Assembly: GCA_963674745.2 (NCBI GenBank)
Contig: CAXXDV010000003.1
Location: 704,001-768,000, forward strand
DNA length: 64,000 nucleotides
DNA from: Desulfosudaceae bacterium
GTDB lineage: Bacteria > Desulfobacterota > Desulfobacteria > Desulfobacterales > Desulfosudaceae
Direction of reading: 5' to 3'
Shown: positions 1,497 to 40,207 of the stretch, piece by piece
Layout: each line of letters starts with the position of its first letter
How positions within the stretch are numbered: the stretch's first letter is position 1
The notes under the pieces: generated by a model
Told to the model about the DNA's origin: nothing
Databases searched by the model: none
What the model saw: only the letters and a program-made list of their open reading frames with translations
Translations under genes and position numbers: made by a program

Positions 1497-4400
1497 TTAA
1501 ATTTTAAAATAGGGGCAATCCTTCTGGATACACTCCCTGTTCCTGCCCTGCTGGCGGCACTGAACATCTCCGTCGGCCTTTAATGGCAGGGGCAGGTAGG
1601 TCTCGGATAATTCAGCCGCCGCCTTTAAAGCCGTCCAGACCTCACGCTGACAGCAGCGGGCGGCTTCCGTCCGGTTCAATCGGCTGATAATGGCTTCGGA
1701 AACCTTTTGAATGATCTGGCGGGGGCCGGGTGCGAGCGGGTTGCTTTTTAAAATAATGCCAAAGGCGATACCCACGCCCACGGCCGCGCCGCAGGTACCC
1801 CAGAATCCGCAGGCCCCGCCGGGTACGGCGCGTCCCCGTTCAATGGCGGTAACAATATCCTTTTCGGTCAGGTCGCCCCCCAGGTTTTTGTAAGTCGCGG
1901 TAATTACCCCCGGTACCGCAAAATGGTGCTCGGGACCGTGAACGGAAAAAGCCGGGTGCCGTCTGAGTTGATTGATCAGGTCGATCATGTCCACTAAGTC
2001 GGTATGGGTACAGACATGTTTGACAATATCGACCATGTCGCTGCCATGGCAACTGTCACAGACAAAGTGACCGTCTTCGCAGGCCGCGTTGGCCATGAGT
2101 TTATTCCCGCAGAAAACGCAGGTTTCCTGCCGGTCTTCGGAAAAATAGATCAGTGGCTTACCGCACAGCATGCAATCCCGACTGTGTTTTGGATCATTGT
2201 TCATAAAAAGAGCTGTAACGGGGGCCGGTTTGTCCCCGGCCGATCGACTGTCCTCAGGCGGAACGGAACAGTCACAACTCACAGCACCTTCAGGTGGTAT
2301 GCCACAGCTGCAGGCATTGGCTGCTTCTATGTTGTCGACATTGCCCATGGCATCGAGTTTGAAAATCGCTGAATCACCCTGGGCGTCATAGGGCCAGTTA
2401 ATTTCCGATACCTGTCCCCGCAGCAATAACTCTCCATCGTCGGTTACCACGGCCGCGTAAGGACCGGGATACATGGCCGGGGATTTTTCTTCCGGCATGG
2501 GCCGAAAGGCCGTATAGGTGACCGAATAAAAGTGGTGCCCCAGGACTTCTTTGTAGAAAAAACGTTTGACGATGCGGATATGGCAGAACCCGGCCGATTC
2601 CAGGATGGCGATCAGATGGGGCTGGACCAGGGCGCCGGCAATGCATTCTCCGCGCAGTTTGGCATCATTCTGAATGGCCGGCGGGCAGGGGGTGTCGGTG
2701 ACGACGTCGGAAATGAAGATCCGTCCCCCGGGCGTAAGAACTCGGAATATCTCGGAAAATGTCCGGCGCTTATCTTCGGAAAGGTTGATCACACAGTTGG
2801 ATATGACCACGTCAACCGTTTTGTCGCTTACGGGAAGCTGCTCGAGAAAGCCCTTTTTAAATTCGACGTTCCGGTATCCCAGGTTATCGGCCACTTCATC
2901 CATGGGGCGCCGGGCCAGGGCCAGCATATTGTCCAGCATATCGATGCCTGTCACCGAACCTTTCGGTCCGACCTTGCGGGCGGCAATGTAACATTCGACC
3001 CCGGCGCCCGAACCCAGGTCAACAACTGTTTCACCGGGTTTAATGGCGGCATCCAGCACCGGGCTGCCGCATCCGTATGAGCGGATCCGGGCTGCGGGCG
3101 GGATGTGCGGCATCTCGGCATCGGGATAACAGACCGGGTTGGTGATGTCTGTGTTCTCATCTTCTGCGGCGGTGGAATAAAATTCGCCGACAACCCCGCG
3201 GGTGCCGGAGAAAGTCAGTACGCAGTTGGAATGGGTCAGGGCAACACCTTCCCCTTCCTGAATGCAGTGCAGCAGTTTTTCCCCCATTTTTCGCCGGATC
3301 TGGGGCCAGGGCCGTTCTTCGACAATTTGGGCGGATTGAACCATCAGCCACAATGCCAGACGATTATAGAGCGGTACATAAGGATCATGACCGACATAGG
3401 CACCACCGGCATAATAGCTGTGGTCAATGTCGCCACCGCCGATGATATATTTCAGGGGGTTGGCATTGTAGTTGGTATCGCTCACGATGGATAATTCCCG
3501 AAGGGACGCCAGCGCCGGACTGTTTCGCCAGACGTTTTCCAGGTTTTCGGAAATGTGACCGCAGACCGTGTCTTTGCGGCCGATCAAGGCGGGGGTGGGG
3601 TAAACACTGCCGTTCGGGCCGATGGCCAGCGACTCCCAGCCGGCATTGCCAAGATCGTATCTGGTCCCCGGCGTGGAAAACACCTGGGCTGACAGGTTGG
3701 AGATATTATCGATGGTCACATTGTTTTTTTTCGCCAGGGCATGAGATTGAACCAGGTCGGAAAACAGTGCGTCGGCCGGCACATACGACAGGCCGGATGC
3801 CCGTCCGGTGTTCAGCAGCCACATGTAGTGGACGCTGTTGATGTTGTGCCGTGCGGCCAGTGACACCATGTCCGTCATCTGGTGCCGGTTATCGGGCGTA
3901 ACCGCCATGGAAAGGGTCGTCTGGAGGCCCAGCCCGTCAAGGGCCGTCAGCCCGTTTACGATTTTTGCAAATGATCCCTTGCCTCGCAGGTCGTCGTTGA
4001 CATCTTCAAGTCCGTCCAGGCTGACCTGGAGAAAAAGCCGGTCGGATGGCAGCGACTGTAAAAAGGACCGTTGTTCCGGTAGTAAAATGCCGTTGGTCAG
4101 GATGGCCAGCATGGTATCGGGAAAATCAAACAGAACCAGACGGCATATCTGTTGAAAGTCCGGATGAACAAGGGGCTCTCCACCGGTCAGGTAAAAGACG
4201 CGGGTGCCCAGGCCGTATGCATCAGAAACAACCGTCTTGATCGATTCCAGGGAAAGCGTCGTCTGTGTCTTTGCCGAGCATGAAAACAGGCAATGACGGC
4301 AGGACAGGTTGCATTGATCGGTAATATGCAGCCAGCATTCTTTCAAGTGGTTCAGTTGCAGAGCGCCGGCACGTCCGTCATAATCTTCGATTTCCGGAGA

Positions 4401-37832: not shown

Positions 37833-39128
37833 TCAGCCGGCCCGGGCCAGCGGCAAATCCTGCCAGCGGGAGGTAAAGGCCGGTGAGGTGTGGCGGCGCT
37901 GCATTTCCCAGGCATGGTCCCGGCCGCTGGCCGCAAAGTACAGGACGTCCCGGCCGAAGCGTTCATTGATCCGGTCCAGGGTGGTCATCAACTGTTCATC
38001 GGCCCGTCTGTCGGTCACCAGATGCTCTTCGATGCAGGTCTGCCGGTGTTGTGCGTCCGTCAGCCCGGACAGCATGACCCCGGCTTTTTTGTACCCGTAG
38101 CCCGGGCGGTAAATATGGCGCAGCACTTTCAGCGCGGCCGTCAGCATGGCGGGGGTGCTGTTTGACGGCGGGCAGAGGCGGAGGAATTCGCAGGCCATGT
38201 ACTGGGGCAGGGGCCGGAAGCGGTCGGTCTGGAGAAACACGTGCAGGCAATGGGCCACCTGCCCGGATTGTCTCAGTTTCTCCGCGGCCCGGTGGGTGTG
38301 AACCGATACGGCCTGTTCAAGATCATTCCGGTCCGTCACCAGCCGGCCGAAAGATCGTGAGCGGATCAGGCTCTTGGCCGGCGCCGGCGCCGTGTTCAAT
38401 GCCAGGCAGGGCCGACCCGTAAGTTCCCGGACCATGCGTACCCCGTTGATGGTCATCCGTTTTCTTATCCATGATTCCGGCATGCGGACAAGCGCGCCGG
38501 CGGTGTGGATACCGTAGTGATGAAGCATTTTCGTGTACTGCCGGCCGATGCCCCAGATGTCGGCCACGGGGATGGTCTGCAGCAGACCGTCCAGGTCGGT
38601 GGCGTTGTCAATGCAGACGACCCCCCTGGTTTCCGGATTTTTTTTGGCGATTTTATTGGCTGCTTTGGCCAGGGTCTTGGTGGATGCCAGGCCGACGGAA
38701 ACCGGTATCCCGGTCCATTGCCGCACCACGGCCCGGATCTGGCGGGCCTGGGCTTCCAGGGCCGGCGACGATTTTCCGGTCAGGCACAAAAAAGCCTCGT
38801 CCTGGGAGTATATTTCCAGGTCCGGTGTCAGCATGCCCAGCACGGACATGACCCGGTCGGACATATCGGCGTAAAGGGTGTAGTTGGACGAAAACACCCG
38901 CACCCCGTAACGCCTGAAATCGGCTTTCATTTTAAAGGCCGGCGCGCCCATGGCAATGCCCAGGGCCTTGGCCTCGTTGGAGCGGGCGATGACACAGCCG
39001 TCATTGTTGGACAACACCACTACCGGACGGTTTTCCAGGCGGGGTTGAAAGACCCGTTCGCAGGAGACGTAAAAATTATTGCAGTCCACCAGGGCTGTCA
39101 AAGAACTGCTGTCATCCGGCCGGGGCAT
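37833..39128 (-). CDS. umuC: Y-family DNA polymerase, UmuC (Pol V) with DUF4113 tail
   Basis: [61 protein letters not shown]...SP.FTSRW. ORF is open from 39164. Confidence 0.95.
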
Positions 39129-39519
39129 TTGTGATCCGGTGCTGCCGCAGGTTGTGAAGGACATAGGTGGCCACCCCCCAGACCATCAGTTCCGTGTCGC
39201 CATGGATGGCCAGGGGCGAGACGTCGGGGTTTTCGGCCAGCAGGCGGATCTGTCCGTTCCGGGACCAGAGCCTGCGGACCATCAGCTCGCCCTCGACCAC
39301 GGCCACGACCACATCCCGGTGCCCGGCGTTAAGGGCCCGGTCCACCACCAGGATGTCTCCGGAGTGGATGCCGGCCGCCTGCATGGCGTCCCCGGACACC
39401 CGCATGAAAAAGGTGGCCAGGGGGTGAGCGATGACCAGCTGGTTCAAGTCCAGCCGGCTTTCGGCAAAATCCCGGGCTGGCGACGGAAAACCGGTGTAAT
39501 TTAAACCAGTTCCCGACAT
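39112..39519 (-). CDS. umuD: UmuD-like protein with a short N-terminal arm and degenerate catalytic dyad
   Basis: GFPSPARDF...[20 protein letters not shown]...GDILVVDR...VRRL...ENP...WGV; directly upstream of umuC. Confidence 0.9.
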
Positions 39520-40139
39520 GTCCAGACCACCCTTCCGATAATCCGTACCCGGTTGATTTCTTCGTCCTGCAGGTAAACCGGCGCGTAACCGGTGTTGGCG
39601 CTGATCAGCACCAGGCGCCGGGGATGTTTCTCAACCCGTTTGACCATGACCGTGTCGTCGATGCCCACGGCATAGATACCGCCGGCATATATCTCCGTGC
39701 GGGACTGGTCCACCAGCACCGTATCGCCTTCTTCGATGACCGGGGACATGCTGTCGCCGATGACGTCCATGAGCACCATCTGTTCCGGGTTGCCCTTGCG
39801 GCGCAGCCAGGAGCGGCTGAAGGCGTAATATGATTCGATTTCCGGGCTGGTTTCAAAGGACCCACCGCCGGCGTGCAGCCGGGCCCGGACCCGGGGCACG
39901 GCCGTGGTCGCCTCGCGCATGACCGGCGGTCCGGATCCGGTTGATGCCAGCCACCCGGGATCAACATCAAAATGCCGGCCGAGCTTGACCAGCCAGGCGT
40001 CCGGGACCGTATTTTTGCGCTTGGCCTGGGTAATGGCCGAGCGGTGTACCCCCAGTATGGCGGCCAGTTCCGACTGGGAACGGATGCCCAGGCCCTGCCT
40101 GGCTTTTTCATAAAAAACGTCAAAAGGGATGATCGTCAT
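39501..40139 (-). CDS. CI/LexA-like repressor (HTH + S24 peptidase)
   Basis: SQSELAAILGVHRSAIT HTH, ..WL..G; Ala-Gly site HAGGG; GDSMSP serine; VKRV lysine; IIGRVVW. Confidence 0.92.
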   Translation of the reverse strand: MTIIPFDVFYEKARQGLGIRSQSELAAILGVHRSAITQAKRKNTVPDAWLVKLGRHFDVDPGWLASTGSGPPVMREATTAVPRVRARLHAGGGSFETSPEIESYYAFSRSWLRRKGNPEQMVLMDVIGDSMSPVIEEGDTVLVDQSRTEIYAGGIYAVGIDDTVMVKRVEKHPRRLVLISANTGYAPVYLQDEEINRVRIIGRVVWTCRELV

Positions 40140-40170
40140 AATGATCTCTTTGTTTATCGAAAGCTATTTA

Positions 40171-40207
40171 TGTTTATTTATATAAACAATCTGTATATGG
40201 GTGTCAA
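40171..40207 (-). promoter_or_regulatory. Sigma70-like promoter overlapped by a palindromic operator
   Basis: Minus-strand TTGACA (40207-40202), 17-bp spacer, TATATA (40184-40179); TGTTTAT-N4-ATAAACA at 40171-40188; extra half-site TGTTTAT at 40151. Confidence 0.65.

Follow-up and report, generated by a model that had tools for sequence, protein, structure and literature searches.

Cleavage of E. coli UmuD is the textbook case of post-translational licensing of a mutagenic polymerase. An N-terminal arm of ∼24 residues (residues 1-24) keeps UmuD inactive until it is removed, and self-cleavage at the Cys24-Gly25 bond by the Ser60/Lys97 dyad is the defining activation step of the E. coli protein. 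Here, we have analysed a 64,000-nucleotide stretch of DNA from a Desulfosudaceae bacterium (NCBI GenBank assembly GCA_963674745.2, contig CAXXDV010000003.1, positions 704,001 to 768,000 of the forward strand; hereafter the window) and describe a UmuD-like gene whose product, judged from its residues, cannot undergo this self-cleavage. We lean towards the view that the protein is a born-active, uncleavable UmuD'-like subunit, and that the control by RecA* has been moved to transcription.

As phage P1 HumD shows, a genetically encoded UmuD' is not new. HumD and gp26 of phage N15 (NCBIfam NF051876) are likewise UmuD'-sized and directly encoded, and both start exactly at M-GFPSPA; McLenigan et al. 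1999 is reportedly the paper on HumD. According to its record, P1 HumD complements UmuD'; unlike the window gene, it is phage-borne, has a LexA site and has no cognate umuC. HumD aligns with both Ser and Lys kept (ADSH, RIKR), and in N15 gp26 the Ser is replaced by Thr. The window protein is 37% identical to HumD, scores 74.2 bits on the HumD model (cut-off 120), has nine residues before Gly10 and lies next to umuC, so that it is not a member of the HumD family. With this precedent, and with dyad-less UmuDs occurring in several other lineages, the uniqueness that a preliminary description of this gene had implied was overstated.

Self-cleaving S24 regulators other than LexA are also known to control error-prone polymerase genes, namely streptococcal HdiR, Acinetobacter UmuDAb and the CI-like, non-canonical LexA of Bacteroidetes (PMC8565304, available part). 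The repressor encoded in the window shares with them the architecture of a CI-type helix-turn-helix (HTH) plus S24 domain, and differs in lying inside the operon, where it overlaps a dead umuD; the UmuD partners of those systems are not described as dyad-less in the available part of the same source. A conserved S24 protein without nucleophile and cleavage bond has been described in Synechocystis PCC6803 LexA (PMC2921402, available part), which is a transcription factor, whereas the window protein is a polymerase subunit homolog. A search of an incomplete collection of papers, outside subscription journals, turned up neither natural UmuDs without the dyad nor a cassette of repressor, dead umuD and umuC.

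Sequence comparison shows the UmuD-like protein to be a clear UmuD homolog. In a phmmer search against PDB chains, its residues 8-124 align to residues 23-138 of E. coli UmuD (8gmt_B, E 1.4e-29), and the UmuD' structure 1umu_A matches residues 10-121 (E 2.3e-29). The protein scores 82.1 bits on Pfam Peptidase_S24 (PF00717; cut-off 23.3) and 144.6 bits on the UmuD subfamily model of NCBIfam, PRK10276 (NF007621), which is above the cut-off of 110. The UmuD' arm GFPSPAxDFxExRLDLN and the core are kept whole. The likeness to E. coli UmuD and UmuD' thus covers fold and family, the GFPSPA..RLDLN arm, a umuC gene directly downstream and a predicted dimer on UmuC; the differences include a C-terminal tail that is ∼12 residues longer and overlaps umuC, and a preceding S24 repressor gene of its own instead of a LexA box.

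What the protein lacks is the machinery of self-cleavage. In the phmmer alignment, Ala45 lies under Ser60, Arg82 under Lys97 and Thr9-Gly10 under Cys24-Gly25, and Met80 takes the position of Thr95. The codons GGG GAC GCC ATG (GDAM) and GTC CGC AGG (VRR) can be read directly in the reverse complement. The protein begins with MSGTGL and has only nine residues ahead of GFPSPA, so that neither a Cys/Ala-Gly bond nor an arm of ∼24 residues in front of it is present. Active S24 peptidases in MEROPS use a Ser nucleophile and a Lys general base, and the UmuD-like protein has neither. The GDAM and VRR motifs, the T-G pair at the scissile position and the nine-residue arm had all been read in the preliminary description, and bases, open reading frame (ORF) and alignment bear them out. 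The concern that the real start lies further upstream finds no canonical codon in its favour: 46 open codons precede Gly10 in this frame, and the sole ATG, GTG or TTG among them is the ATG nine codons before Gly10. As there is no other such codon in the open frame, a longer arm would need a non-canonical start.

Table 1. Features of the cassette in the window, and loci of a comparable UmuD type in other genomes
Feature	Position	Strand	Details or basis
UmuC gene, 443 aa, with clade-specific N-terminal extension of ∼20 residues	37833..39164	-	Pfam, NCBIfam, alignment
UmuD-like gene, 135 aa	39112..39519	-	A45, M80, R82, T9-G10, 9-residue arm
Overlap of UmuD-like 3' end and UmuC start, 53 nt	39112..39164	-	UmuC start choice, alignment of UmuCs
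Overlap of repressor stop and UmuD-like start, 19 nt	39501..39519	-	..WTCRELV-stop vs MSGTGL..
CI-type HTH + S24 repressor gene, 212 aa	39501..40139	-	Ala-Gly, Ser, Lys intact
Extra half-site TTGTTTAT (+ strand)	40150..40162	.	between operator and repressor start
Perfect palindrome TGTTTAT-N4-ATAAACA, presumed operator	40171..40188	.	arms of 7 nt (100% complementary) separated by 4 nt
Candidate -35 hexamer TTGACA of the cassette promoter	40202..40207	-	read by eye
Dyad-less UmuD loci of Chitinophagaceae and related Bacteroidota, L033, L036, L039, L045, L048, L049, L055, L057, L059, L060, L084-L088	∼3900-4360 in each

The loss of dyad, cleavage site and arm is shared by all close relatives of the protein. 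A word-indexed homolog search returned 1458 relatives, and our statements on the closest homologs rest on the best 120 of these. In all 11 of the closest proteins (P0001-P0011, 59-100% identity) the dyad positions are Ala and Arg, the scissile pair is Thr/Ser-Gly and the arm has nine residues (11 residues in one of them); the ten closest relatives among the matches listed are 59-84% identical and 132-137 aa long, and an alignment of the 11 proteins has 58 invariant columns. We also examined 401 sampled genomes of the order; a match was present in 66, and we classified the best 30 loci: six are Ala/Arg and 24 are Ser/Lys, the latter with 28-residue arms ending in Ala-Gly. The six Ala/Arg genomes (the bacterium's own genome G000, G399, G129, G210, G271 and G317) belong to three genera of one family, a count that leaves out a seventh family member with a partial match (G338). 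Two loci of the genome collection, L011 and L027, appear identical to contigs of G399 and G271. In a metagenome scan the best match was 58% identical, and the scan yielded no close relative and no added cassette loci.

In the six genomes the UmuD-like ORF is intact, with no frameshift or stop, at identities down to 52%. Its dN/dS, calculated by NG86, ranges from 0.27 to 0.79 and is below 1 in all 15 pairs; the neighbouring repressor gene ranges from 0.18 to 0.52 (15 pairs) and the gene for UmuC from 0.21 to 0.47 (6 pairs). By this measure the UmuD-like gene is constrained about as strongly as its cassette partners, and on these comparisons the combined loss is a conserved trait and not a chance or strain-specific lesion. 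Close homologs keeping Ser/Lys had been named as the finding that would speak for strain-specific decay, and a dN/dS comparison had been proposed alongside; both results fall on the side of a maintained gene.

The UmuD-like gene stands in the middle of a compact cassette. Positions 37833-40139 of the minus strand hold three overlapping ORFs, for a repressor, the UmuD-like protein and UmuC (Table 1). All six Ala/Arg loci of the order sample have an overlapping same-strand HTH-S24 gene upstream and umuC downstream, and the overlap of repressor and UmuD-like gene is of the same kind in 6/6 cassette loci; a same-strand upstream S24 gene is found at 1/24 of the Ser/Lys loci. In the other collections (161 loci plus the window) the arrangement occurs only in the window, L011 and L027. 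None of the seven proteins that flank the cassette in the window adjoins it in G129, G210 or G271, and judged from gene order the repressor, the UmuD-like protein and UmuC behave as one portable unit found at non-syntenic sites. At its start the UmuD-like protein reads MSGTG (MPGTG in relatives), and the bases for these residues also encode the conserved C-terminus of the repressor (..CRELV-stop); the conservation of the first ∼6 residues is therefore not independent evidence. A programmed frameshift fusing repressor and UmuD-like protein was considered and dropped: the open frame, which runs for 37-104 codons upstream of the ATG across the cassette loci, was all that spoke for it, and this is weak as evidence of a fusion since G+C-rich DNA is expected to leave alternative frames open over long distances.

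The first gene of the cassette encodes a protein with the sequence hallmarks of CI/LexA-type repressors, namely an N-terminal HTH and an S24 domain that retains Ala-Gly, Ser and Lys. It scores 81.6 bits on Peptidase_S24 (PF00717) and 23.9 on Phage_CI_repr (PF07022; cut-off 22), and in an alignment to E. coli LexA, RLHA-GG lies under VAA-GE, GDSM under GMSM and VKR under VKR. Upstream of this gene, the palindrome TGTTTAT-N4-ATAAACA, the presumed operator, lies behind the TTGACA hexamer and overlaps an AT-rich -10 candidate. The palindrome is kept at the same place in L173, L174, L177 and L182 and is conserved in 5/5 loci with upstream sequence, and third half-sites similar to that of the window are present in L173 and L174. 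Read by eye, TTGACA/TTGACT/TTGATT followed after 17 nt by TATATA/TATATT recurs in L171, L173, L174, L177 and L182. The only exact copy of the palindrome in the 5.55-Mb genome is the cassette's own. Four genomic sites differ from it by one mismatch, and none of them adjoins recA, the repressor paralog or the other Y-family polymerase gene; with ≤2 mismatches there are 78 sites in the genome compared with 27 for the reversed control.

The third gene encodes UmuC, with Pfam scores of 121.6 bits for IMS, 75 for IMS_C and 68 for DUF4113. The start was placed at the ATG that precedes DCNNFY by 26-27 codons; L173 offers no other plausible start, and L177 and L182 keep this ATG. To see how UmuC and the UmuD-like protein could fit together, we predicted the structure of a complex of UmuC with two UmuD-like copies. 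The complex scored 0.82 in three runs, with 0.03 for the best of three controls; the mark for this score is reached by 116/157 solved complexes and by 2/215 mismatched pairs. The partner pLDDT is 75-76, and the runs agree in at least 90% of the contacts. In the model, copy 1 takes up residues 429-443 of UmuC in what was once the active-site cleft (its residues 37-46 and 77-81), and copy 2 rests on the UmuC palm with its residues 6-23. As the PDB copy that was searched has no UmuC chain, the model is not a recall of a solved structure, and its contacts fit the published Pol V model with UmuD' in the available part of that source (PMC12926913). The prediction supports a dimer of the UmuD-like protein on UmuC.

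Taken together, the cassette would be a self-contained, damage-inducible Pol V module, with overlapping genes read from one transcript. In the undamaged cell, the CI-type HTH-S24 repressor would bind TGTTTAT-N4-ATAAACA over the -10 region and keep the cassette off. Upon DNA damage, RecA filaments would stimulate the repressor to cut itself at Ala-Gly, and the cassette would be transcribed; the damage signal thus probably acts on the module's own repressor. With Ala45 in place of the nucleophile, Arg82 in place of the general base, Met80 in place of Thr95 and the Thr9-Gly10 pair in place of a cleavable bond, the UmuD-like protein would escape processing and be made directly in a UmuD'-like state. 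Its dimer would join UmuC to give a presumably active polymerase, one copy holding the UmuC tail in the old cleft and the other laying residues 6-23 on the palm. The RecA* checkpoint, which in E. coli is post-translational and consists of UmuD cleavage, would here be applied only at transcription.

How far dyad-less UmuDs extend beyond this cassette was examined in a family sample of 268 proteins, taken from the best 120 of 1458 and the best 150 of 3427 matches (E < 1e-10) and hence biased towards the query: 225 are Ser/Lys, 28 are Ala/Arg and 15 have other combinations. To count signatures we combined the protein and locus sets and kept each single-domain sequence once; relatives in this pool are not independent of one another. 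Thr is found at P1 in 33/41 Ala/Arg sequences (Ala in one), and Ala/Cys in 331/335 Ser/Lys sequences; the Thr95 position is Leu/Met/Val in 40/41 of the former and Thr/Ser in 314/335 of the latter. The annotated arm has a median of 9.5 residues in Ala/Arg (n=24) and 34 in Ser/Lys (n=203), with gene-caller starts that are uncertain. Two groups, one from Desulfobacterales and one of 17 Chitinophagaceae loci, make up most of the Ala/Arg set. In a tree of 62 rows and 113 columns, with the 41 Ala/Arg sequences thinned to 22 and the 335 Ser/Lys sequences to 40, the free topology needs five changes between the two types and a topology with all Ala/Arg sequences in one clade is not significantly worse by the AU test (p 0.525), so that the sequences are compatible with one to five origins of Ala/Arg. 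It is a tentative possibility, going beyond what we propose for the cassette, that the Ala/Arg UmuDs, with Thr-Gly, Ala60, Leu/Met/Val95 and Arg97, form an old cross-phylum non-proteolytic branch in which the S24 cleft serves as a permanent dock for the UmuC tail. Cleavage stimulated by RecA* would then be one of two natural ways of licensing Pol V, and the Desulfobacterales cassette would be the purest example of the second, in which a self-cleaving repressor encoded in the operon takes over the whole RecA* checkpoint.

Chitinophagaceae and related Bacteroidota have a well-supported UmuD clade that is Ala/Arg, with some Ser/Arg and Asn/Arg members. These dyad-less UmuDs keep a 28-residue arm ending in ..TANAT-GFPSPA and are followed by umuC (Table 1). 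Among P0121-P0244 there are also 23 two-domain proteins, tandem UmuD-UmuD fusions of 220-285 aa. Their first domain usually keeps Ala/Cys-Gly and has often lost the dyad (AR, SR, DK, AQ, DR, HR, FQ, GR), and their second domain keeps Ser/Lys and has no cleavage site of its own. Going by these residues, the labour of intermolecular cleavage seems to be divided between the two domains of one chain.

A protein that cannot cut itself might still be cut by another. The preliminary description had offered cleavage in trans by the S24 domain of the neighbouring repressor, and if this or another S24 protein cut Thr9-Gly10 on the RecA filament, the exact UmuD' N-terminus would result. E. coli UmuD is indeed cleaved intermolecularly, within the dimer on RecA filaments, and the residues reported to contact RecA (Y52, 54, F94, D91 and E93) are conservatively kept in the window protein as F37, M39, L79, E76 and E78 (PMC9926225, available part for both points). 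The tandem fusions, in which a dead domain with a cleavage site is joined to one with Ser/Lys, likewise fit one domain cutting the other. However, it is these fused dead domains, plausibly cut, that retain Ala/Cys-Gly, whereas the Ala/Arg proteins have mostly Thr at P1 as counted above, and the residues before Gly10 vary between genera (GLNYT, GIIYT, GITHT, QNASI, GAVFT). The arm residue F18, which helps to bind RecA in E. coli, is absent, and the repressor's S24 domain is distant, scoring 27 bits on a UmuD profile compared with 213 for the UmuD-like protein. Thr at P1 and the unconserved residues before Gly10 in particular disfavour trans-cleavage, which we consider quite improbable.

Engineered uncleavable E. 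coli UmuD is non-mutable, which would suit a protein acting as a brake. Such a brake could slow replication or restrain UmuC as uncleaved E. coli UmuD2C does, or occupy the groove of the RecA filament and modulate RecA* activities; the conserved RecA-contact positions agree with it, and the 28-residue arms of the dyad-less Chitinophagaceae UmuDs demonstrate that the dyad can be lost without the arm. In the window protein, however, the missing part is exactly the inhibitory arm while the UmuD' arm and core are intact, the predicted complex has a UmuD'-type arrangement on UmuC, and a cassette that makes a polymerase together with its permanent inhibitor is hard to rationalise. We regard the brake as unlikely. 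S24 domains also mediate dimerisation in LexA-type repressors, and the dead S24 protein could pair with the S24 domain of the repressor, with which it would be made together from overlapping genes, and tune DNA binding or cleavage in a feedback loop instead of serving UmuC. Given that the protein is above the NCBIfam cut-off for UmuD and is not a copy of the repressor domain, and that dyad-less UmuDs elsewhere have UmuC without a local repressor, such pairing is very improbable. That the gene is a decaying, functionless remnant would be in line with the lost catalytic residues and with dN/dS values reaching 0.79, but is hardly credible for ORFs that are intact across six genomes of three genera with 58 invariant columns, have dN/dS below 1 in 15/15 pairs and close to that of their neighbours, and keep their overlaps on both sides.

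The proposal of a pre-activated, UmuD'-like subunit, already made in the preliminary description, is favoured by the loss of the traits across genera, by the linkage to UmuC and repressor, and by the complex model. Several observations weigh against it. The nine residues ahead of Gly10 mean that the predicted N-terminus differs from that of a literal UmuD', and to this extent the proposal needs to be amended; the Pol V model places the N-terminus of UmuD' near the active site of UmuC (PMC12926913, available part). The score of the complex is the model's own confidence and was obtained with small custom alignments (15 and 11 rows) that lie outside the calibration. The UmuC of the cassette scores 415.7 bits on NCBIfam PRK03609 (NF002955), just under the cut-off of 431, with Pol IV as next best at 170.3. 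A consensus promoter scan called no promoter in the intergenic region, a miss explained by the -10 candidate TATATA, which fails the rule of T at position 6. The upper dN/dS of 0.79 for the UmuD-like gene is high, and NG86 is crude at such divergence.

The association of a dead dyad with a local repressor also has its exceptions. All six genomes with the cassette belong to one family, so that the link amounts in effect to one evolutionary event. A local S24 gene is not sufficient for loss of the dyad: in the phylum sample, an S24 gene adjoins 3/28 Ser/Lys loci on the upstream side. Nor is it necessary, since the dyad-less UmuDs of Chitinophagaceae and Melainabacteria have umuC and no adjacent S24 gene. 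The co-occurrence with the upstream repressor that had been proposed as a check therefore holds for the family (6/6) and breaks down outside it, and from these comparisons the local repressor is a feature of the cassette clade, not of all dead UmuDs. The three Ser/Lys loci are L212, L216 and L225 (family f104), each with a same-strand S24 gene directly upstream, and they indicate that the order repressor-umuD-umuC also exists with an intact dyad.

If our reading is true, the cleavage checkpoint would be dispensable when transcription is tightly tied to RecA*, and the cassette would offer a simple three-gene system in which to test to what extent the control of Pol V depends on the UmuD arm. 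This may be of wider relevance, as UmuD cleavage has been proposed as a target to slow the evolution of resistance (PMC9926225, available part). The four-position signature could serve as a practical rule for sorting cleavable from uncleavable UmuDs in genomes, and annotation pipelines would be mislabelling the latter as an 'autoproteolytic subunit'. The source annotation indeed calls dyad-less proteins such as P0020 'translesion error-prone DNA polymerase V autoproteolytic subunit', a name that cannot fit Ala/Arg.

Two further features of the cassette UmuC are worth recording. Its N-terminal extension (MxFTxCG..; window positions 39090-39164) was not seen in 10 UmuCs encoded beside Ser/Lys UmuDs, and its codons fall within the 53 nt that the UmuC gene shares with the extended C-terminus of the UmuD-like protein; the UmuD-like subunit has thus lost an N-terminal arm while UmuC has gained an N-terminal tail next to the catalytic Asp. 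At residues ∼375-381 (QTCIEEH), which we take to be the place of the β-clamp motif of E. coli UmuC, UmuCs beside Ser/Lys UmuDs read Q-x-x-[LIF]-F in 9/10 cases; five cassette UmuCs read QTCIE, QTFIE, QVWLH, QTCFP and QTCFP there, and the final Phe is lost.

The setting of the module in the genome also deserves mention. No LexA DNA-binding domain was found in the bacterium's own genome (99.96% complete), in which RecA is present, and the domain was found in 261/401 genomes of the order sample. That the cassette is tied to the absence of LexA was considered and rejected: the own genome and two genus mates are without the LexA domain, and G210 and G271 have it. The own genome encodes a second CI-type HTH-S24 protein (L003, 1234-1884), which is 51% identical to the cassette repressor and, read by eye, sits behind a different palindrome, ATATAC-N7-GTATAT. 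This paralog may be the general SOS regulator.

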